From a virus: DNA of 13,459 nt. Position numbers and translations under genes: made by a program. The first letter of the stretch is position 1. The number at the start of each line of letters is the position of its first letter. This document shows, piece after piece, positions 1-12,595 of the stretch. The notes beneath the pieces were generated by a model. That model made no database searches. It saw only the letters and a program-made list of their open reading frames with translations, and was not told where the DNA came from. Location: positions 1 through 13,459 of IMG/VR virus record IMGVR_UViG_3300045988_088938; one strand, written 5' to 3'.

Positions 1-55
1 AAGTGCTATTGGGACTATCTGCGAGCGCGAGTTTGTGAAGGAAGTGTGAAACATG
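1..55. repeat. Left inverted terminal repeat (55 bp)
   Basis: aagtgctattgggactatctgcgagcgcgagtttgtgaaggaagtgtgaaacatg equals the reverse complement of 13405-13459. Identity stops at nt 56 (c versus a). The repeat contains an SD-like gaaggaag followed by ATG at 53-55. Confidence 0.95.
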
Positions 56-109
56 CTCAATCTGCTTTGGGTTTTGGGTGCTGTGTTTGATATTTTAAGA
101 GGGTGAACG

Positions 110-256
110 ATGATGATTTTTGTGATTGATATGCTTAATCATGTACAGGTATATGCGGGCGCAAGTATGTTGGAAGCAATGACCGCGCAAAATGATTATA
201 TGTGCTTTATGGGCATTTCTGACGAGTCAATCCAAATGGAGGTGATTTACAAATGA
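110..256 (+). CDS. Hypothetical small acidic Met-rich protein (48 aa), absent from the supplied ORF track
   Basis: ATG at 110 lies 3 nt after the SD GAGGGTGA (100-106). Translation: MMIFVIDMLNHVQVYAGASMLEAMTAQNDYMCFMGISDESIQMEVIYK. Its TGA stop (254-256) overlaps the ATG of the next ORF (253) as ATGA, suggesting translational coupling. No homology recognised. Confidence 0.4.
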   Translation: MMIFVIDMLNHVQVYAGASMLEAMTAQNDYMCFMGISDESIQMEVIYK

Positions 257-441
257 CAATCTGTGATTTTTACCGGGCGTGTCTGTCAATGCAGCCTAAA
301 ACAAGTATCCGCGTGTATGACAAGGAACGCTGCATCTATACCGGTGAATATGGCAACCTGCCTTATACACTTGCAAAACATGAGTTTGCTACCCTGCTAG
401 TCAACCCTAACATGGAATGGAAATTTTATTTTAACTCTTGA
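253..441 (+). CDS. Hypothetical small protein (62 aa), paralogue of the right-terminal 82-aa ORF
   Basis: SD GGAGGTGA (239-246) lies 6 nt before the ATG. The protein shares DFYR-C...P...VY...TGE(Y/F)...(L/M)P with ORF 13159-13407 (-). Confidence 0.6.
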   Translation: MTICDFYRACLSMQPKTSIRVYDKERCIYTGEYGNLPYTLAKHEFATLLVNPNMEWKFYFNS

Positions 442-466
442 CACCAACAATTACATATGATACCAT
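438..466 (+). promoter_or_regulatory. Candidate sigma-A/sigma-70 type promoter: TTGACA-N17-TACCAT with TG extension
   Basis: TTGACA at 438-443 overlaps the TGA stop of the 62-aa ORF. A 17-nt spacer ends in ...TGA, followed by TACCAT at 461-466. It lies in the only sizeable non-coding gap of the + arm, upstream of the morphogenesis operon. Confidence 0.45.
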
Positions 467-467
467 T

Positions 468-550
468 AGAGCGGGAAAAGATGCGCAAGCTATACGGACG
501 GAATCCGGCGCACGACCTTGTAGCGGGTCAAGAGTCTTTTCCCGCTTTTT
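468..550 (+). ncRNA. Candidate structured small RNA or leader (three-way junction closed by a 12-bp 5'/3' helix, ending in a U-tract)
   Basis: Helix A: 470-481 agcgggaaaaga pairs perfectly with 535-546 tcttttcccgct, followed by tttt (547-550). Helix B: 482-486/508-512 and 495-498/504-507, with an 8-nt bulge at 487-494. Helix C: 514-517/526-529, with loop 518-525. No SD-led ORF is present here. Confidence 0.35.
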
Positions 551-584
551 GTATTCCCGTCCGCTCGAAAGTGAGGTGTAAACC

Positions 585-737
585 ATGGAAGAAATTAGCA
601 ATCTTATCCAACAGGTTGGCTTCCCAATTGCGGCGTTTTTGCTTATGTGGTGGCAAAGCAACACTACTATCAAGGACAACACCGCAGCAATTAACAAGCT
701 GTACGACCACTTGAGCGATAAAGACGGTGATGCATAA
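585..737 (+). CDS. YvrJ-like small membrane protein (50 aa), a possible holin-type protein; absent from the supplied ORF track
   Basis: SD GAGGTG (573-578) lies 6 nt before ATG 585. Translation: MEEISNLIQQVGFPIAAFLLMWWQSNTTIKDNTAAINKLYDHLSDKDGDA. The GFPI-plus-hydrophobic core followed by a polar helix matches my memory of the Firmicute YvrJ family. Its stop TAA overlaps the next ATG (TAATG). Confidence 0.55.
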   Translation: MEEISNLIQQVGFPIAAFLLMWWQSNTTIKDNTAAINKLYDHLSDKDGDA

Positions 738-1278: not shown

Positions 1279-1583
1279 GACAATTTTACAGCGAGCTAAT
1301 AGGGGGTAGTACCGGAACAACTGTGCAATTTGTAAAGCCCGTGAGAAAAATTCTTGTAGAGTGCGACACACTAATCGGTTTGGCGATACCGTTTTCTGAT
1401 GGCAGTTTTTCTGACGAGTTTTTATGCTTCCCGAAACAGCCCGTATATCTGGATTTTCAAAGCGCCAATAATGGCGGCGGAGTAAGCTCTATTAGCTTAA
1501 TACCGGAAGTTGGTGGTGGTGGCGTTGCGAGATTATCCGTCATCGAATATGGCTCCGATGGTGATAATGATTGGTACAAATAA
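1275..1583 (+). CDS. Hypothetical Gly-rich head-module protein (102 aa)
   Basis: GTG start overlaps the upstream stop (GTGA). SD AGGTGA (1263-1268) lies 6 nt upstream. It sits between the scaffold-like and capsid genes. No homology recognised. Confidence 0.45.
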   Translation: MRQFYSELIGGSTGTTVQFVKPVRKILVECDTLIGLAIPFSDGSFSDEFLCFPKQPVYLDFQSANNGGGVSSISLIPEVGGGGVARLSVIEYGSDGDNDWYK

Positions 1584-1598
1584 TGTGAGGTGACACAA

Positions 1599-2813
1599 AT
1601 GAATGATATGACTATTTCGCAGGCCGCAACAATCCTTGGCTCCGCGGTCGAACAGGCAACAGGCCAGAAAGTAATTACTAATATCGACACGCCGGAGCAG
1701 TTTGTTTCGGTTGCCCAGACCGCTCTTAAAACGGGTTATGACCCGATTATTAACGCACTGTCGCAGATTTGGAGTCGGTCAATCTACGCAGTGCGTGACT
1801 ACACAAGCCCCCTGACCAGTCTTGAAATGGATTTGCCCCGTTACGGCAACGCGCTGCGCAAGATTAGTCCCATTGCCGCAAAGATGCAGGACGACCAGCG
1901 TTTTATCTGGCCCGTTGCCTATGATGCAACTAATCATAAGGCAAACGCTCTGGGTAATGGCGAAAGTGTTGACATGTACAAGATTAGCAAGCAGGAAGTC
2001 TTGCAGACCAACTTTTACGGCACCGCAGTCTACCAGCAGCGCTACACTACGTTTAAGGACCAGTTTGACGTTGCTATGTCCTCTGCCGATGAATTTATGC
2101 GTTTTAACGCCATGAATATGACGGAGCGCAATAACGACAAAGAATCCTACCGCGAAGCAGTTGCCCGCGGCATGCAGGCGAATTTTATTGCAGCAATCCT
2201 TGACGAGGGTCAGAATTCCCGCGTTGTACATCTGTTGACCGAGTATAATGCTGAAACTGGTTTGAGCCTGTCGGCGCAGAGCGTTTACCAGCCTGACAAT
2301 TTCGCGCCCTTTATGCGCTGGGTGTATGCCCGTTTGAACGTGATTGCGCGTTTTATGGGTGAGCGCAGTCAGCTTTATCAGACCGTTATTAACGAAAAGC
2401 CAGTCTTGCGCCACACCCGCGGCAGCGACCTGCGCGTGGCTCTGTACAGCAAAGCATATGAGCAGATGCGCACCATGGCGCTGTCCACTACATTCCACGA
2501 TGATTACCTCAAATTGGCAAAATTTGAGGGCATCAATTTCTGGCAGAGCATTGAGACACCGGACAGCGTGAGCATCACGCCGGTATACACCAGCACCACC
2601 GGTGCAGTCAAAAAGGCATCCAAGGCCGTGGAGCAGGCCGGTATTTTCGGCATCATGCACGACCGTGACGCGCTGGGCTATTGCTACACCAACATGTGGA
2701 GCGCGACCACCCCGCTCAACATTGACGGTGGCTATTGGAACACCGCGGAGCATGCAACCATCAAGACTATCCAGGACAACACCGAAAAGGCCGTTGTGCT
2801 GCTGCTTGATTAA
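1599..2813 (+). CDS. Major capsid protein (404 aa from ATG 1599)
   Basis: SD GAGGTGA (1587-1593) lies 5 nt before ATG 1599, so the track's GTG at 1590 falls inside the SD. It is the largest head-module ORF and is followed by a strong terminator. Its N-terminal region resembles the phi29 gp8 layout as I recall it. The call rests mainly on position and size. Confidence 0.75.
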   Translation: MNDMTISQAATILGSAVEQATGQKVITNIDTPEQFVSVAQTALKTGYDPIINALSQIWSRSIYAVRDYTSPLTSLEMDLPRYGNALRKISPIAAKMQDDQRFIWPVAYDATNHKANALGNGESVDMYKISKQEVLQTNFYGTAVYQQRYTTFKDQFDVAMSSADEFMRFNAMNMTERNNDKESYREAVARGMQANFIAAILDEGQNSRVVHLLTEYNAETGLSLSAQSVYQPDNFAPFMRWVYARLNVIARFMGERSQLYQTVINEKPVLRHTRGSDLRVALYSKAYEQMRTMALSTTFHDDYLKLAKFEGINFWQSIETPDSVSITPVYTSTTGAVKKASKAVEQAGIFGIMHDRDALGYCYTNMWSATTPLNIDGGYWNTAEHATIKTIQDNTEKAVVLLLD

Positions 2814-4357: not shown

Positions 4358-4909
4358 ATGGCAAGCTATCCACAATGTATCACGGATGAGAGCACAATCA
4401 CAGTAACCGCAGCATACCCTTATTATTCGGACGGGTCGCACCATGGCGGCATTGACACCAAGCATCCCACTGATTTTTTGTCGTTTGCGCCGCAGGCTGG
4501 CACGATTGTAACGGCGCACACTTGGCAAGGCGGCAAAACAGGTAACGACAGTTGGGGCAATTATATCGTGGTAGATATGGGCAACAAACGTTATTGGTTG
4601 GCTGCGCATTTTAAAACGCAGACACACAAAGTGGGCGATGTGCTCAAAGCTGGCGATTTGATTGGCATGCAGGGGCAGACCGGCAATGCAACCGGCATCC
4701 ACACCCATTGGGAGTATTGGGTAGGTGGGCGCTCTACTCGTTACCGTCAAGACCCGTCCCAAATTTTGGGCATCCCGAACGCAGTTGGCAAGTATGATGT
4801 AACATGGAGTGCAGACAACCCGCCCGGCCCCGGCCCGGAGCCGCCCACGCCGGGTAAAAAAGCAATACCGGTATGGCTATTGCTTAAAATGGCAAGGAGG
4901 TATGCCTGA
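4358..4909 (+). CDS. M23 (LytM/lysostaphin-type) metallopeptidase, a peptidoglycan hydrolase (183 aa)
   Basis: SD GAGGTGA precedes ATG 4358. It has the HxxxD motif (HGGID) and the HxH motif (IHTHWE), with the intervening GNYIVV...GDLIGMQGQTGNATG typical of M23. A Pro-rich linker PPGPGPEPPTPG is followed by the C-terminal KKAIPVWLLLKMARRYA. Confidence 0.85.
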   Translation: MASYPQCITDESTITVTAAYPYYSDGSHHGGIDTKHPTDFLSFAPQAGTIVTAHTWQGGKTGNDSWGNYIVVDMGNKRYWLAAHFKTQTHKVGDVLKAGDLIGMQGQTGNATGIHTHWEYWVGGRSTRYRQDPSQILGIPNAVGKYDVTWSADNPPGPGPEPPTPGKKAIPVWLLLKMARRYA

Positions 4910-5820
4910 TGCAAGCAGCGCCTTATATGTACGATTATGTTAACACAGCGGTAAGCCAGCACAGCCCCAGCACTGTCCACACAAAAAACACAGAGCTGCA
5001 ACGCTTTTTTGCCCGCTACTTGCTGCAAAAAGCAATGTCGGTATTTAAGTGGGATTTGCCCGAAACGTGGGACAGAGACTACTTTTTGTATGTCTTGTAC
5101 GGTATCGGTTATATTGCGGTGATTAACACTGATAAATACGGAGTTATTCCGCAGCAATGCGGGCTTGACGGGTACAACATTTTTTACCAGCCGAAACGCG
5201 CCCTTGTCACAAATCCCCTGCTTAGAGGTTTGCGCAGTCTGGATATTGGCACGCAATGCACGCTTATCAAGCTACAACCTGATTATGGCAGCGTCATGGA
5301 TTTGGTAGGATTTTACGCTGATATGATGGCCTTGACCGCAGAGACAGCGGGTGTAAACCTTGTCAACAGTCGTCTATCCTATGTGTTTTTTGGCAAAAAT
5401 AAAAACACTGCGGAAAGTCAAAAGAAACTATTTGACCGTGTGGCAAGCGGTGAGCCTGCAACATTTGTTGATACCGCATTATATGACGTGCAGAGCGGCA
5501 ATCCCTCTTGGATACCGTTCCAACAAAACGTGGGGCAAAACTATATTGCCGGTGACGCATTGGCAGACCTGCGCAAATGGGAAATGATGTTTGACACAGA
5601 TGTTGGCATCCCGAACGCGAACACGGATAAAAAAGAACGTCTTATCAGTGATGAAGTAAACGCAAATAACGTGGAAGTAACCAGCAAAGCGGATTTGTGG
5701 CTTGACCAGCTGCAAAAGAGTTTTGCACAAACAAGCAAAATGTTTGGCATTAAACTTGGCGTTGAGTGGCGGAACAAGCCGCAGGTTAGCGCAGAAAGTG
5801 AGGGCGGCGAAGATGAGTAG
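4909..5820 (+). CDS. Portal / upper collar connector protein (phi29 gp10-like, 303 aa)
   Basis: SD AAGGAGG precedes the ATG, which overlaps the upstream stop (TGATG). GIPNANTDKKERLISDEVNANNVEV parallels phi29 gp10 [25 protein letters not shown]. The N-terminal FKWDLPETW...YGIGYIAV parallels FEWENLPPTI...HQFGYVGF. It has an acidic C-terminus. Confidence 0.9.
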   Translation: MQAAPYMYDYVNTAVSQHSPSTVHTKNTELQRFFARYLLQKAMSVFKWDLPETWDRDYFLYVLYGIGYIAVINTDKYGVIPQQCGLDGYNIFYQPKRALVTNPLLRGLRSLDIGTQCTLIKLQPDYGSVMDLVGFYADMMALTAETAGVNLVNSRLSYVFFGKNKNTAESQKKLFDRVASGEPATFVDTALYDVQSGNPSWIPFQQNVGQNYIAGDALADLRKWEMMFDTDVGIPNANTDKKERLISDEVNANNVEVTSKADLWLDQLQKSFAQTSKMFGIKLGVEWRNKPQVSAESEGGEDE

Positions 5821-6424
5821 AGCAACCTTGTCACTGTTAGGGCTGTACCAGTACGACAACACAATTTTTAATGAGCTTGTATTGCCGGACGGCATGGACA
5901 AACAACTGTACATCAACAACCTGTTGATGGAAACGGCGGAGATGGAAGTGCTGTTTTCAAACCCCTCAACTATGCGCTCTGTTATTGGCATTTGGTCAAG
6001 CGCACATCTGGACAGTTGGCAAAAGATGTGGAACACCACCAAGCTGGAATACAACCCTATCGAAAACTATGACCGGCAAGAGGACTGGACAGACAACAAC
6101 CAAACTAACAGCAGGGTGCAAAGCACAGATATAGGTGTTGGCAACAATCACAGTACCGATATTAGCAAGGCCGCAGGTTTTGACAGCGGGAACCTTGTTA
6201 CCAGCGGTCAAAATGACAATGACAGCACCAACGTGAGCACGCAGACCGGAAACAGCGAGGGCAACAGCAACGAAGAGTTAAAACACACAGGGCGAGTACA
6301 TGGCAATATCGGTGTAACTACATCGCAGCAAATGATTGAGGAAGAGCGCCGGGTTGCCGACTGGAACATGTACGAGTATCTGATTAATAAGTTTAAGCAG
6401 CAATTTTTGCTGCTTGTATATTAA
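5813..6424 (+). CDS. Lower collar / head-tail adaptor protein (gp11-like by position, 203 aa)
   Basis: ATG 5813 overlaps the portal stop (gATGAgTAG). An SD-like GTGAGGG lies 8 nt upstream. It follows the portal gene as in phi29. An Asn/Ser/Thr/Gly-rich central segment is plausible for a tube-forming hairpin. The track's upstream start at 5702 lies inside the portal gene. Confidence 0.6.
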   Translation: MSRATLSLLGLYQYDNTIFNELVLPDGMDKQLYINNLLMETAEMEVLFSNPSTMRSVIGIWSSAHLDSWQKMWNTTKLEYNPIENYDRQEDWTDNNQTNSRVQSTDIGVGNNHSTDISKAAGFDSGNLVTSGQNDNDSTNVSTQTGNSEGNSNEELKHTGRVHGNIGVTTSQQMIEEERRVADWNMYEYLINKFKQQFLLLVY

Positions 6425-8888: not shown

Positions 8889-8925
8889 AACAGCCCCTGC
8901 CAATACGGCAGGGGCTGTTTTATGC
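8889..8925. terminator. Bidirectional rho-independent terminator between the convergent arms
   Basis: A perfect 13-bp stem pairs 8889-8901 aacagcccctgcc with 8907-8919 ggcaggggctgtt, with loop aatac. The T-run on the + side abuts the ATPase stop codon (8920-8922). Confidence 0.8.
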
Positions 8926-9984
8926 TTTCCGGCTTGAGATTTTGGCACCTTCCCGGAAATACTTATCTAGTAATACTTCGCAAATTGGCGATTCAAATAA
9001 AACAATATCGGTATAATAGTACGCAAGGCGAAACCATGCAAAATGAGCGTTAAACATTTGTATGCCGCGTTCTGTGCTTTCATATACCGGGCAGTTTCCA
9101 GATTTGTGGGTTGTTACATAATATTTTTCTTTCGATTTATGCTTATATATTTCGAGTTCGCCCATAATACATATGGGTTTATACTCAATAATGTTTTGGG
9201 GCTTAATCTGGCTGTATTCCTGCCTAAAATCGTTATTGAGCGCCATAGCACTGTATAACTTATCTTTAGTAAGCCGGTACAATGCGGTATTGGCTTTTTG
9301 CACCGAGATTGGAGAGTGTTGCAGCATCACAAGAGTAATACCGCGCTCTGTGTCTTGCCACATTTCCGTTTTAGTATCAATCATTTTTTGAGCACGCGAA
9401 ACAAGCCCCATATCCAAAAACAGCGGGTTTGCAATATCGTTTGCATTGGCAAGACACAGCATTTTAAGGGGCGGTTCGCCTTTTAACTCTCTGTTACGGT
9501 TGATTGTTTCATATGCGTTATAAAATGCCGCAGCTTCGTTTTTAAGCGGACGTTCGTGCTTCTCGGGAATAAATTCATCATAGATACAAATTTTGCAATC
9601 CTCTGCGCTAAAACCGCGCATGTTGGAGATTGTAGAAAGTGCGCAGGTATAACCATACGGCAGGCCGCCGGTGTATTTGCCTTCTTCATCGACATCATAA
9701 AATGCGCTACTACCCTTGGATATCGGAAAAGGTTTGATGTTCAAACCCATATCTTCACAGACCGGCTTGATGGGGCTGAACTCTGGTTTATTAACTAGGT
9801 CGATGGCGGTTTGCGTTCGGCGCATGAGCATAAATGTTATACGATGCTCAAGTACATATTTTAATGCGCCATATGTTTTACCGGTGCCGCGTCCGCCTAC
9901 AATCATAATATAAGGCGTTGGCAAGCCCATAATATAATCCATGTTCAGGTATCCGCTGTCTAGGTATAACTTGTTCTTCTTCAT
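8920..9984 (-). CDS. DNA encapsidation (packaging) ATPase, phi29 gp16-like (354 aa)
   Basis: Walker A is GGRGTGKT and Walker B is ICIYDEF. IVGGRGTGKTY...FMLMRR parallels gp16 VIGARGIGKSY...FIYVRR. YDEFIPEK...INRNRE...LCLANA..ANPLF parallels FDEFIREK...VFRNRE...ICLSNA..VNPYF. Confidence 0.9.
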   Translation of the reverse strand: MKKNKLYLDSGYLNMDYIMGLPTPYIMIVGGRGTGKTYGALKYVLEHRITFMLMRRTQTAIDLVNKPEFSPIKPVCEDMGLNIKPFPISKGSSAFYDVDEEGKYTGGLPYGYTCALSTISNMRGFSAEDCKICIYDEFIPEKHERPLKNEAAAFYNAYETINRNRELKGEPPLKMLCLANANDIANPLFLDMGLVSRAQKMIDTKTEMWQDTERGITLVMLQHSPISVQKANTALYRLTKDKLYSAMALNNDFRQEYSQIKPQNIIEYKPICIMGELEIYKHKSKEKYYVTTHKSGNCPVYESTERGIQMFNAHFAWFRLAYYYTDIVLFESPICEVLLDKYFREGAKISSRKA

Positions 9985-10004: not shown

Positions 10005-10044
10005 CAAAAGGGCGGCGGTTTTCAAGCCGCCGCCCTTTTGTTGG
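10005..10044 (-). terminator. Strong GC-rich hairpin terminator (symmetric, U-tracts both ways) between the SSB and ATPase genes
   Basis: The core stem pairs 10010-10018 gggcggcgg with 10027-10035 ccgccgccc. It is extendable to 14 bp (10005-10018/10027-10040). The loop is 8 nt. tttt flanks the stem in either orientation. Confidence 0.75.
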
Positions 10045-10473: not shown

Positions 10474-10502
10474 ATGATACCGCTTTATTAACCTATTGTC
10501 AA
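10474..10502 (-). promoter_or_regulatory. Candidate sigma-A type promoter TTGACA-N17-TATCAT upstream of the SSB gene
   Basis: On the - strand, TTGACA (10502-10497) overlaps the polymerase stop codon. A 17-nt spacer precedes TATCAT (10479-10474). A perfect TATAAT lies 5 nt further (10474-10469). A 7-bp palindromic hairpin at 10451-10469 follows. Confidence 0.45.
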
Positions 10503-12595
10503 TACCCATTTTCAAAATATTCATCCAGCCTGCCTATGCCTTTTCGGGTGTAATCGCAGCGCAAAAGCAAGTCCATATATTCCGCAGTAATTCCGAGTTT
10601 ATAGGTGCTTTCACGGATAACAACATTTGATGTAATTGGCAATGTGTGACCGTCTATTGTAATGCTGTCTATCTCTGGACTATCATTATATATGGATTCT
10701 GTGCCGCCCGCGTCACGGAAAACAAAACCCGGCTTAAATGCATCAATGCCGCCGCTGCGTTCCAATTCTTTCGCGCCCTCTTTTTTATTAACGCCTGCAA
10801 TTGTGCAGCACAATGGGCTTTCTGGCGTTTCGCGGTAGCAATATTTTTTAGCGCCCAACGTGGCAAATTCGAACATATCATGTTCAGGTTCGAAAACGCC
10901 CATATAATGCATGTTGCCGGATGGGTCAGCAGCATATGCACCTGAGGTTTTACTATCTTTAATTCTTGCTTTGTTGTATTTTGTCCAGTCAATGTCACCG
11001 AGATATTTTACCGAGTCAGTATCACAATACACAAAGCCATCCCCTGCAAGCTCTATACCCTCTTCAAGTCGATAACGCGCATTTGCAGTTACCCAAACGC
11101 CCCATTGATAACACAAAAACGCGTTGCGCAGATTTTGCGACAAGATATTTTCGATTGGCGTTTTTTCATCAATTTCAAATTCTTCTTCAGGAGTGTATAA
11201 TATGGAGCGTTTGCCCGGGTCTTGTGCCATCATGCCATATATACTATTGAGCTTGTTTTTGCTTTTCATGTAATACAATTCTTGCCCGGGCACATTCTTC
11301 AAGCTTGTTTTTGCGCGGTAATAATCTATTGCACATTCAATCAGTTCGCGCGGCAACTTTGCGTAGGTGGATTGCCAACAGTCAAATGCCCGGAATCCAG
11401 AAAACTTGTACTCTTTAAGGATAATTGCAAGGTCAACATCTGTCACGGTTGTTTCGAGGTATTTTGCGCTCAATATTCGCCCGTTGTCACGGTCGGGGTC
11501 TATCACGTTTCGGCTCTTATCAATCGTAAGATATGGGCATCCCCAGCAAGGGTTGATTAACTCAACGTCTGTTAATGCAATACGCATTATCAACGCTTTG
11601 CGGTGCTTGTTGAGTTTTCGTTTGAGTCCATCCAAAGTTATTTCCCCGATAGGCACAAAAGCTCGCATTGGGTACAGACAATTGCACAACACATCCGGGT
11701 AACTGCTGCTTCGGTCTGCGCTCTGGATTTTACCACGCAGCACTTGACCGGTATAATAGCGGTTGGCGTGAGTGTTTCCGCCGCGAAACGCTTCACGCAG
11801 CATTGTATATAATTCCGCGTCAGGCTGGATTGCGCCGAGACGTTCCAGCCCTGCGCGTTTCATGGCGGCGCGTGCATCGCGGCGCACATAGCCGGTAGAG
11901 GTTAGAGGAATTGTGTACAGGTTGTCATTGTCATGGTGCATTTCAATGGTCAGGGCTTCACATAGGCCGAGCACGTCATTTACACAATATTCAAGCTCTT
12001 CATCCGACAACGCCGTCCATGGATAGCGGAGCTTATTGTAGTCAAATTTTACGCCGGACAATTTACCATGAGCCACGCCCATTTTGTGGGTGTATGCATC
12101 AAGGCTCATATTCGAGTGCAGATAGCTGCAGCGGAATTCAAAAAAATTATCATACATCGTACATTTCAGGACTTTGCGGCAATCAACTGCAAAAATCTCA
12201 TCATTAGTAAAATGGTAGATACCGCGTAAAAATTGGAACTCATATGACAAATTATGGACATATACACAGAGCTGCAAATGGTAATCTTCTTGAGATTGTT
12301 CTTGCATGCAGGCTTCGAGGCTGGCACACAATGCTTCAAATTCATCCCATGTTCTACCGACAACAGTAAGATTAATAGGTGCCGCAAAATGCCATTGCCA
12401 AATATACATGACAGCTTGTTCTATCGACTTAATGCGAGTTGTTTCAATGTCAAACGCTGTCACAATATCAAGCAATTTTGTCTTTTTGGTTCTTGTGATT
12501 TTCCGTTCCAAAACAGGTAGCGTGGCGAATTTCTCTAGCGGAAAATCAATCACCGAACAAATGACTTGCCCATTCTTCAAGGTCTTTACTTTCAA
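10499..12595 (-). CDS. Family B DNA polymerase, protein-primed type (698 aa)
   Basis: Exo I is FDIETT, Exo II is HNLSYEFQF and Exo III is YCVNDVLGL. Motif A is DRSSSYPD, motif B is KNKLNSIYGMMAQ, motif C is YCDTDSV and the KxY motif is GAKKYCY. All parallel phi29 DNAP motifs. The start is TTG at 12595, preceded by AAGGTGA. Confidence 0.95.
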   Translation of the reverse strand: MKVKTLKNGQVICSVIDFPLEKFATLPVLERKITRTKKTKLLDIVTAFDIETTRIKSIEQAVMYIWQWHFAAPINLTVVGRTWDEFEALCASLEACMQEQSQEDYHLQLCVYVHNLSYEFQFLRGIYHFTNDEIFAVDCRKVLKCTMYDNFFEFRCSYLHSNMSLDAYTHKMGVAHGKLSGVKFDYNKLRYPWTALSDEELEYCVNDVLGLCEALTIEMHHDNDNLYTIPLTSTGYVRRDARAAMKRAGLERLGAIQPDAELYTMLREAFRGGNTHANRYYTGQVLRGKIQSADRSSSYPDVLCNCLYPMRAFVPIGEITLDGLKRKLNKHRKALIMRIALTDVELINPCWGCPYLTIDKSRNVIDPDRDNGRILSAKYLETTVTDVDLAIILKEYKFSGFRAFDCWQSTYAKLPRELIECAIDYYRAKTSLKNVPGQELYYMKSKNKLNSIYGMMAQDPGKRSILYTPEEEFEIDEKTPIENILSQNLRNAFLCYQWGVWVTANARYRLEEGIELAGDGFVYCDTDSVKYLGDIDWTKYNKARIKDSKTSGAYAADPSGNMHYMGVFEPEHDMFEFATLGAKKYCYRETPESPLCCTIAGVNKKEGAKELERSGGIDAFKPGFVFRDAGGTESIYNDSPEIDSITIDGHTLPITSNVVIRESTYKLGITAEYMDLLLRCDYTRKGIGRLDEYFENGY

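Follow-up and report, generated by a model that had tools for sequence, protein, structure and literature searches.

The prohead or packaging RNA (pRNA) of phage phi29 is regarded in reviews as unique to phi29 and its Bacillus relatives (PMC5066667, PMC11476376, PMC12670572), and other phi29-like phages, asccphi28 among them, have been studied on the premise that they show no evidence of a pRNA (PMC7823558). No published pRNA from outside the Bacillus phages was found in our literature search. Here we describe an RNA element of approximately 80 nucleotides (nt) at positions 468-548 of a 13,459-nt viral DNA (IMG/VR record IMGVR_UViG_3300045988_088938), which as a whole is referred to below as the window. 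An earlier note on this DNA had proposed that a non-coding gap in the plus arm encodes a promoter-driven three-way-junction RNA, either an analogue of the phi29 pRNA or a partially terminating leader. The existence of a structured RNA, with a tertiary or quaternary pairing between its bulge and one of its hairpin loops, is supported as well as comparative sequence analysis allows, and a role in DNA packaging appears to be the best-fitting hypothesis, the one that would explain the most features together.

In the Rfam consensus, domain I of the pRNA begins with the A helix, followed by a 1-nt linker, a 9-base pair (bp) C helix, and a 9-nt 5' bulge abutting the 4-bp E hairpin with its 6-nt loop; then come the 3' strand of C, a 3-nt linker, the 6-bp D hairpin with a 5-nt loop, and the 3' strand of A. 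In the element family no linker separates the A helix from the next helix, which has 4 bp; an 8-nt 5' bulge then leads straight into a hairpin of 4 bp whose loop has 5 nt. The 3' strand of the 4-bp helix is followed by a linker of 2 nt, a hairpin of 5 bp closed by a 6-nt loop, a linker of 3-5 nt, and the 3' strand of A. Judged from the two consensus structures, the topology is that of the Rfam pRNA in smaller dimensions and with the same order of parts, which bears out the likeness to the phi29 core that the earlier note had suggested. The parts of the element and its immediate surroundings in the window are as follows.

438-466, plus strand: promoter of the sigma-A/sigma-70 type, with -35 TTGACA at 438-443, a 17-nt spacer and -10 TACCAT at 461-466
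456-459, plus strand: TATG (extended -10, the Gram-positive '-16 TRTG' motif), preceding the -10
468-482, plus strand: helix A, 5' strand (core 471-482), pairing with 534-548
483-486, plus strand: lower helix B, 5' strand GCGC, pairing with GCGC 508-511
487-494, plus strand: 8-nt 5' bulge AAGCUAUA, of which 489-494 is complementary to loop 519-524; counterpart of the phi29 CE/right-hand loop
495-507, plus strand: upper helix B (495-498/504-507) with apical loop CGGAA at 499-503; counterpart of the phi29 E hairpin
508-511, plus strand: lower helix B, 3' strand GCGC, pairing with 483-486
514-529, plus strand: helix C hairpin (514-518/525-529) with loop UGUAGC at 519-524; counterpart of the phi29 D hairpin/left-hand loop
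530-533, plus strand: A-rich junction strand AAGA between helices C and A, 3-5 nt and purine-rich in all members
534-548, plus strand: helix A, 3' strand, from RNAfold and covariation
546-552, plus strand: U-run UUUUUGU directly after the G+C-rich part of helix A, resembling an intrinsic terminator
573-576, plus strand: ribosome-binding site GAGG for the gene at 585-737
585-737, plus strand: first gene of the structural operon, coding for a small membrane protein of 50 amino acids without a Pfam match

Fold and covariation of the element

The gap 442-584 proved to be the sole sizeable non-coding stretch of the plus arm, as the earlier note had said, and the promoter read at its left edge is present and is the best one on the plus strand of the window, scoring 10/12 plus TG and predicting a transcription start at about 470-473. 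Its -35, TATG and -10 are invariant or near-invariant across 11 close relatives, while the promoter spacer varies, as does the downstream spacer in the ten closest loci. When the region 466-552 was folded with RNAfold, the proposed three-way junction was obtained as both the minimum free energy (MFE) and the centroid structure. The MFE is -35.5 kcal/mol compared with -23.6 +/- 3.2 kcal/mol in 200 dinucleotide shuffles (z = -3.71), none of which was as stable. Helix A comprises 12 Watson-Crick pairs at 470-481/535-546 and is extendable by U482-G534, G469-U547 and A468-U548. One detail of the earlier model has to be corrected: the pair U482-A512, there placed in helix B, is not supported by the relatives, and position 482 instead forms the last pair of helix A together with 534, with which it covaries. 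In addition, the second AGCGGG copy pointed out at 522-527 does exist, but its pairing with the CCCGCU arm is without comparative support and is seen in near-identical relatives only.

Homologues were collected with a covariance model that was built from the sequences of the close loci and then rebuilt twice from its own matches, and covariation was computed on the resulting 27-row alignment; as the model is fitted to nested helices, such an alignment favours those helices. Standard pairs occupy 94.4% of the cells, versus 58.8% after shuffling and 36-45% when the partners are slid by 1-3 columns. Changes on both sides (double changes) occur in 26 of the 29 pairs, and the covariation score of 0.858 (versus 0.207) was reached in 0/500 shuffles. 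All helices covary in the relatives. In helix A double changes are found at all 12 modelled pairs (27 sequences), and in the lower part of helix B, where 100% of the cells are paired, at all four, the inner two being doubly changed in 9-11 sequences and the near-invariant outer G-C and C-G in one; the four pairs of the upper stem of helix B covary as well. Nearly all members have CGGAA as the apical loop, a few having CAGAA or CCGAA instead, and the A that opens the bulge and the A-rich 3-5-nt strand between helices C and A are invariant. Two findings are independent of the model fit. The structure is borne out by the slid controls and by folding of single sequences, in which 20 of 26 homologues reached the same architecture as their MFE structure. 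In addition, a sequence-only alignment analysed with MAFFT and RNAalifold returned helix B, together with the inner part of helix A, as covarying; helix C was not recovered in this analysis because its sequence is too variable for sequence-only alignment.

Two other explanations of the conserved segment were considered and rejected. The overlapping open reading frames (ORFs) 438-581 and 457-714 do not account for it, since the substitutions are compensatory changes of paired positions and insertions and deletions are tolerated. Placement of the RNA on the minus strand would turn the conserved G-U pairs 482/534, 518/525 and 493/520 into A-C mismatches; therefore, the RNA is assigned to the plus strand. 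The covariance model scores just 19 bits on the minus strand of the element.

The complementarity between bulge and loop described in the earlier note, GCUAUA (489-494) with UGUAGC (519-524), comprises six pairs including one G-U. This helix was left out of the covariance model. The mean longest Watson-Crick run between a bulge and its own loop is 4.43, versus 2.39 between a bulge and the loops of other members, and 0/20,000 permutations matched the observed value; with nucleotide-shuffled loops the mean longest run is 2.58 +/- 0.20. About 11 different pairings occur across the clades, as in GCUAUA/UGUAGC, GGACA/UGUCC, GAACA/UGUUC, GAGU/ACUC, UGUGC/GCACA and GACC/GGUC, and further in GUCCA/UGGAC, UGCAC/GUGCA, GAUCA/UGAUC, CACC/GGUG, UGACU/AGUCA and UAUCC/GGAUA. 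At the four pseudoknot columns that can be aligned, 82% of the cells are paired, with double changes in three of the four pairs. A variant in GenBank genome MT835901 has a helix C of 3 bp with a 14-nt loop, and contains eight complementary bases (AAAAGGAA/UUCCUUUU).

Distribution and genomic setting

A search of IMG/VR based on the capsid protein yielded 35 loci (designated here by L numbers) with capsid identities from 99% to 39%. The ten closest of the loci that cover this region show hardly any variation in the element, and the few changes comprise a compensatory replacement of G471-C545 by U-A in L012 and, in L008, a change of C545 to U that turns G-C into G-U, together with A494G and G520A, both of which keep the bulge-loop pairing compatible. 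The covariance model recovers the element in every other capsid-related IMG/VR locus with enough upstream DNA, and also in the distant GenBank genomes MT836263, MT836115, MT836587 and MT835901 (28-35% capsid identity). The distant GenBank loci that carry it are L038, L039, L040 and L042, plus the cultured Amedibacillus phage AD70P3, in which it lies at 6296-6370 (minus strand) of OP172639 and occupies a 123-nt gap between the gene for a DNA packaging protein and the gene upstream of capsid. Thus, the element is present in every related small phage genome examined, at capsid identities from 99% to about 28%.

IMG/VR was also scanned with a 16-base pattern for the GCGC subfamily, and the 54 matches were judged by the covariance model. 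The model accepts 15, all of which lie on contigs of 12.5-14.5 kb or fragments thereof; three of these are new contigs, with genes for the ATPase, connector, DNA polymerase and capsid. The remaining 39, found on contigs as long as 192 kb, were rejected, a number that by rough estimate falls within the chance range for 16 specified bases, the scan itself reporting no expected number. With a hand-written descriptor, about 4 false positives were obtained per 1.4 Mb of shuffled sequence. The covariance model (R3) found no element in Astrithrvirus (Salmonella and Acinetobacter phages), in Brucesealvirus phages of Clostridium perfringens, or in MT835873 and MT838040, where it matched only plain terminators through helix A and the U-run, and in phi29 and an Enterococcus phi29-like phage it gave nothing but terminator-like partial matches. 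The element is confined to small protein-primed phages that code for a gp10-type connector and a gp16-type ATPase. A weak second match of the model (17-19 bits) occurs about 650 nt downstream of the true element in L031 (3307-3394) and L030 (3343-3430), on the plus strand in both; it contains a 12-bp closing helix AUCGUGGAAACC/GGUUUCCACGAU around internal hairpins, and may be either a branched terminator or another structured RNA.

In most clades the end of a strong promoter (9-12/12 matches, often TTGACA-17-TATAAT-like) lies 4-11 nt before helix A, and transcription is therefore predicted to start at the first pair or within a few nt of it. Within 5-35 nt downstream of the element stands the ribosome-binding site for the leading gene of the structural operon, which is usually a homologue of the small membrane protein gene 585-737. 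A gp16-like ATPase gene lies directly upstream of the element in L037, L039, L040, L097, L100 and L079. A different arrangement is found in the L021 clade (L021 and L023-L028), where the promoter stands upstream of the small membrane-protein gene and the element comes after that gene, at about 210 nt from the promoter. Therefore, the fold is kept whether or not it is 5'-terminal, which argues for a function independent of position in the messenger RNA (mRNA). The gene after the element in L021, L024, L025, L027, L028 and L026 codes for a protein starting ...(A/L)(K/Q)E(I/V)LxGKWGNGxERR..L..AGY.Y..VQ, which resembles, by eye, a cell-wall-binding repeat of phage lysins; the window has no such gene there.

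A U-run after helix A is present in about one third of the clades, namely in that of the window and in L027, L024, L039 and AD70P3, and is absent elsewhere, as in L014, L022, L034, L036, L030, L029, L032, L100, L079 and L040. A G+C-rich stem with a U-tract is not conserved as such, most clades that keep the fold being without the U-tract, suggesting that termination is not the conserved function. Across the clades we saw neither a conserved terminator nor sequestration of the ribosome-binding site by the element. In the clade of the window, the U-run 546-552 could set the 3' end of an RNA of about 75-80 nt.

Packaging RNA, leader or other small RNA

Beyond the order of its parts, the element resembles the phi29 pRNA in several respects. 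In both, the 5' and 3' ends pair to form the closing helix of a three-way junction, the fold is conserved while the primary sequence is very variable, and the phage is protein-primed, with genes for a gp10 connector and a gp16 ATPase. The position of the promoter fits a transcript start at the closing helix; in phi29 the A1 promoter is annotated at 328-356 (minus strand), just upstream of the pRNA match at 201-318 (minus strand). Judged from the sequence, the layout of the locus is that of a small-RNA gene, the promoter in most clades setting the predicted start at helix A as A1 does for the pRNA, and a U-run standing on the 3' side in the clade of the window. In both RNAs, moreover, the loop of the second hairpin is matched by a complementary segment in the 3' part of the bulge and the two covary, as has been reported for the pRNA (PMC12670572, PMC5066667). 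The predicted energies of the bulge-loop duplexes range from -1.2 to -7.5 kcal/mol, and that of the phi29 CE/D loops is -2.9 kcal/mol in the same calculation; thus the modelled duplexes are comparable to or stronger than those of phi29. The differences are also plain. The element is about 80 nt long, versus 120-174 nt, and has no domain II; the counterpart of the C helix has 4 bp instead of about 9, the junction linkers are 0/2/3-5 instead of 1/3/0, and the kissing segment usually has 4-6 bp instead of 2-4. In addition, the apical loop CGGAA is invariant in the element, which heads a late operon, whereas the phi29 pRNA lies at the genome end under an early promoter.

We tentatively read window 468-548 as a miniature structural analogue (approximately 75-80 nt) of the phi29 prohead or packaging RNA, and give this reading somewhat less than an even chance. 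It is favoured because of the shared topology, the covarying kissing pair, the restriction to phages with gp10 and gp16, the predicted co-expression with head genes, and the independence from mRNA position. According to this proposal, the RNA would be made together with the head proteins, either as a terminated transcript (in the clade of the window, with its U-run after helix A) or as a stable piece processed from late mRNA. The bulge of one molecule would pair with the hairpin loop of the next, so that five to six copies would close a ring on the portal vertex of the prohead, where the gp10-type connector is the presumed docking partner. The short closing helices would project from the ring and help to dock the packaging ATPase as in phi29, the gp16-type enzyme being the presumed partner of the RNA.

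Several observations weigh against this proposal. At E <= 10, the Rfam model RF00044 (Phage_pRNA) has no match in the window, AD70P3 or the C. perfringens phages phiCPV4 and CPS2, while phi29 gives 145 bits; in the reverse direction, R3 does not match the phi29 pRNA locus 201-318. The closing helix of the element has 10-16 continuous bp without conserved bulges, in contrast to the phi29 A helix of about 25 bp, whose conserved bulges serve an ATPase-dependent step. The phi29 connector binds the pRNA through an RKR-rich basic N-terminal segment, and the N-terminus of the connector encoded in the window (MQAAPYMYDYVNTAVSQHS..., MQAAPYMYDYVNTAVSQHSPSTVHTK) has neither a basic cluster nor an RKR-rich segment. 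Because of the missing model match in either direction, the short bulge-free A helix and the connector without a basic N-terminus, we regard the element as a structural analogue, possibly a very distant homologue, rather than a member of RF00044. Of the analogy drawn in the earlier note, the structure, the shared topology and the accompanying gp16 gene are confirmed, and its functional part is still a hypothesis. Furthermore, judged from their sequences most clades have no terminator after helix A and a ribosome-binding site of the next gene 5-25 nt further on, and a free small RNA would then need processing. The bulge-loop complementarity is just 3 bp in three clades (L013-L020, L038, L040). 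Finally, covariation cannot by its nature separate a pairing within one molecule from one between molecules, and with arms of only 4 and 5 bp an intramolecular bulge-loop pseudoknot is sterically conceivable.

Some weak arguments point to pairing between molecules. The pairing uses nearly the whole hairpin loop, with 0-1 spare nt on the 3' side, which would be typical of kissing complexes and unlike classical H-type pseudoknots. The arms are connected by no more than a 4-bp helix and 2 nt, whereas an intramolecular pairing would have to span roughly 10 bp, a figure that assumes helix C, the kissing helix and the upper B hairpin to be stacked within one molecule. By the Lescoute-Westhof rules of thumb for family C junctions, helix C may lean to helix A and away from the bulge, because there is no linker between A and B and that from C to A is longer than that from B to C. 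Riboswitch-like folds with internal loop pairings are to be taken as a real alternative.

Such a fold would suit a cis-acting structured leader of the late operon, the main rival account, which we consider unlikely but still serious and in which the bulge and loop form an intramolecular pseudoknot locking a compact junction fold. The leader might set late-gene expression by binding a small ligand or a protein of the phage or host, protect the mRNA from 5' decay, or modify RNA polymerase for read-through in the manner of HK022 put. In most clades the element directly follows a strong promoter and precedes, with no terminator, the ribosome-binding site for the first structural gene, which agrees with this, as do its constant neighbour, which is the start of the head-gene operon and not the ATPase gene, the start of helix A a few nt from the predicted start site, as in Firmicute 5' stabilisers, and the short arms, with which folding back is conceivable. 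However, a 5' stabiliser needs neither the invariant CGGAA loop nor a covarying tertiary pairing, and in the L021 clade the element is neither 5'-terminal nor a leader of the small membrane-protein gene. Three-way junctions with long-range loop pairing are common in riboswitches, and the purine (L2-L3 kissing) and THF-I (loop-to-internal-loop pseudoknot) classes resemble the element in size (70-90 nt), in the P1 helix that closes the fold, in the covarying pairing between the distal elements of the two arms, and, in most clades, in the position in a 5' leader. Nevertheless, a scan of the whole window with Rfam 15 at E <= 10 returned nothing overlapping 438-552 and no riboswitch or leader family. 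The element differs from these riboswitches further in lacking a conserved ligand-pocket junction core (the junction strands being 0, 2 and 3-5 nt) and a conserved expression platform, the ribosome-binding site being unpaired with it and the U-run confined to a minority of clades, and in being confined to one lytic phage group, upstream of structural genes and not always in a leader; moreover, a loop with 0-1 linker nt would resemble a kissing complex more than an H-type pseudoknot. The put RNA of HK022, a cis-acting RNA polymerase antiterminator, is likewise a promoter-proximal structured RNA of about 70 nt heading a long phage operon, but it consists of two simple stem-loops without junction or loop pairing, whereas the element sometimes has its own terminator-like U-run and in one clade follows a gene. 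The partially terminating leader that the earlier note had offered as the alternative is weakened by the scarcity of the U-run and by the L021 clade.

A trans-acting small RNA with a role outside packaging, such as an antisense RNA with the CGGAA loop or the bulge as its seed, or a decoy or sponge that occupies a host protein or defence system, is improbable in our judgement. Its conserved fold, its independence of transcript position, the promoter-plus-terminator layout in the clade of the window, and an invariant apical loop suggestive of a fixed partner would all agree with such an RNA; nevertheless, bulge and loop change freely as long as they match each other, which speaks against a fixed antisense target, no target was identified, and the exact match to pRNA topology and the restriction to phages with gp10 and gp16 would have to be coincidence. 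Conserved covarying branches, a CGGAA loop and a bulge-loop pairing are likewise not required of a plain intrinsic terminator or attenuator with a branched stem, ending the upstream small genes or throttling the late operon, and efficient termination would silence the late genes, there being no room for a promoter between the element and them. Although in the window the G+C-rich helix A runs directly into UUUUUGU, U-rich tails occur in L027, L024, L037 and L039, and the covariance model also matches plain terminators through helix A and the U-run, the absence of the U-run from most clades leaves us with very little confidence in this last explanation.

What can be put on record is a covariation-supported RNA with the core topology of the pRNA in a different phage family that has at least one cultured member, Amedibacillus phage AD70P3, in which the idea of an ancestral or general RNA part in this class of motor is directly testable. 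The analysis suggests that RNA-assisted DNA packaging may extend past the Bacillus phages. In a wider form, to which we give a slightly smaller chance, the pRNA would not be peculiar to Bacillus phi29-like phages but would occur as a mini-version of about 80 nt in a whole Guelinviridae-like lineage of gut phages, and perhaps in a form of about 110 nt in C. perfringens phages, kissing into a portal ring in the same way. If true, neither sequence searches nor covariance models would be able to reach the mini-pRNA. Protein-primed podophages would then have inherited a packaging motor with an RNA component from their ancestor, and the smallest pRNA that functions would need a new definition. Confirmation would also explain why homology searches miss pRNAs elsewhere, and make available a natural pRNA of much smaller size for mechanistic studies and RNA nanotechnology. 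If the element is instead a cis leader, it would still be a new, well-supported family of structured RNA heading the late operon of abundant human-gut phages.

Clostridium perfringens phages and other features of the genome

A candidate structured RNA of about 110 nt was noticed in the C. perfringens Brucesealvirus phages, at approximately 16169-16303 (minus strand) of phiCPV4 (L046, JQ729991) and 1356-1488 (plus strand) of CPS2 (L047, NC_048707). These phages belong to the Guelinviridae, like AD70P3, and the candidate follows a promoter upstream of the scaffold and capsid genes, with its parts in the order found in the window element. Its closing helix is in two parts and is followed by a helix of 10 bp, the 5' bulge CGCCA and a hairpin of GGG/CCC that carries the loop GUGGAA; in a second hairpin the loop UGGC is complementary to GCCA of the bulge. 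With its 10-bp lower helix it is larger than the window element and nearer in size to the phi29 pRNA. Across 17 phage records the sequence conservation is 93-100%, and six variants show three compensatory changes; the bulge and the loop are invariant in the available sequences. The candidate was matched neither by the covariance model of the element nor by Rfam, and a search of IMG/VR for diverged elements of this type returned near-identical genomes only. A second long intergenic region of the same phages (L046 16925-17106, minus strand; L047 539-716, plus strand) contains a TTGTCT-17-TATAAT promoter and a conserved bulged hairpin, GUGGA..GGGGG UGAAC UCCUC..UCCAC.

The window (13.5 kb) represents essentially the whole genome of a small podophage with two convergent arms. 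The plus arm codes for small proteins, the capsid, an M23-type peptidase, a gp10-type upper collar/connector and tail proteins, and the minus arm for a gp16-type packaging ATPase, as the earlier note had recognised, an SSB-like protein and a protein-primed family-B DNA polymerase. The genes that bear on the comparison with phi29 are listed below; the Pfam scores of the ATPase, connector and polymerase all exceed the curated cut-offs.

1590-2813, plus strand: capsid gene
4909-5820, plus strand: gp10-type upper collar/connector (Pfam Phage_connector PF05352, 68.9 bits; PHROG upper collar connector)
8920-9984, minus strand: gp16-type packaging ATPase (Pfam Podovirus_Gp16 PF05894, 47.9 bits)
10499-12595, minus strand: protein-primed family-B DNA polymerase (Pfam DNA_pol_B_2, 44.1 bits)

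The ATPase shares 25.5% identity with phi29 gp16 across residues 1-253. The closest GenBank record is MT835998, an unannotated human-faecal phage contig with 89% identity, and the closest cultured relatives by capsid are the Amedibacillus phages AD70P2 and AD70P3 (Guelinviridae). A resemblance of the 585-737 product to BhlA holins, seen by eye, was not supported by Pfam, which gave no match, and the product is called a small membrane protein only.

When window 1-360 was compared with L001 1-830, the left edge of the window was found to correspond to position 358 of MT835998, which also contains an insert of about 200 nt with small ORFs that the window does not have. Since the window starts inside the MT835998 sequence, the left genome end, including any terminal repeat, lies outside the window. 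A tandem 9-nt repeat (cacccgctg-like) at 1037-1113 encodes a low-complexity (P-A-A)n linker in the 108-amino-acid protein 952-1278, probably the scaffold protein, whose gene immediately precedes that of the capsid. Between the convergent arms, where the gene for an 815-amino-acid tail protein and the ATPase gene both end, a perfect 13-bp G+C-rich hairpin with U-runs on both strands (8889-8919) is likely to be a bidirectional terminator. The five weak Rfam matches elsewhere in the window are attributable to chance or are terminator-like; those to HCV_5BSL1, mir-553 and L20_leader are spurious and due to a G+C-rich hairpin at 10006-10040 (GGGCGGCGG...CCGCCGCCC) with flanking A- and U-runs, which lies between the ATPase and SSB-like genes of the minus arm and resembles a terminator or attenuator. 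The strongest promoter match of the whole window, TTGACA-17-TATCAT (11/12), is at 10474-10502 on the minus strand, where it overlaps the last codons of the polymerase ORF 10499-12595 upstream of the SSB-like gene. From this location between the polymerase and SSB-like genes, the minus arm is predicted to have an internal promoter.

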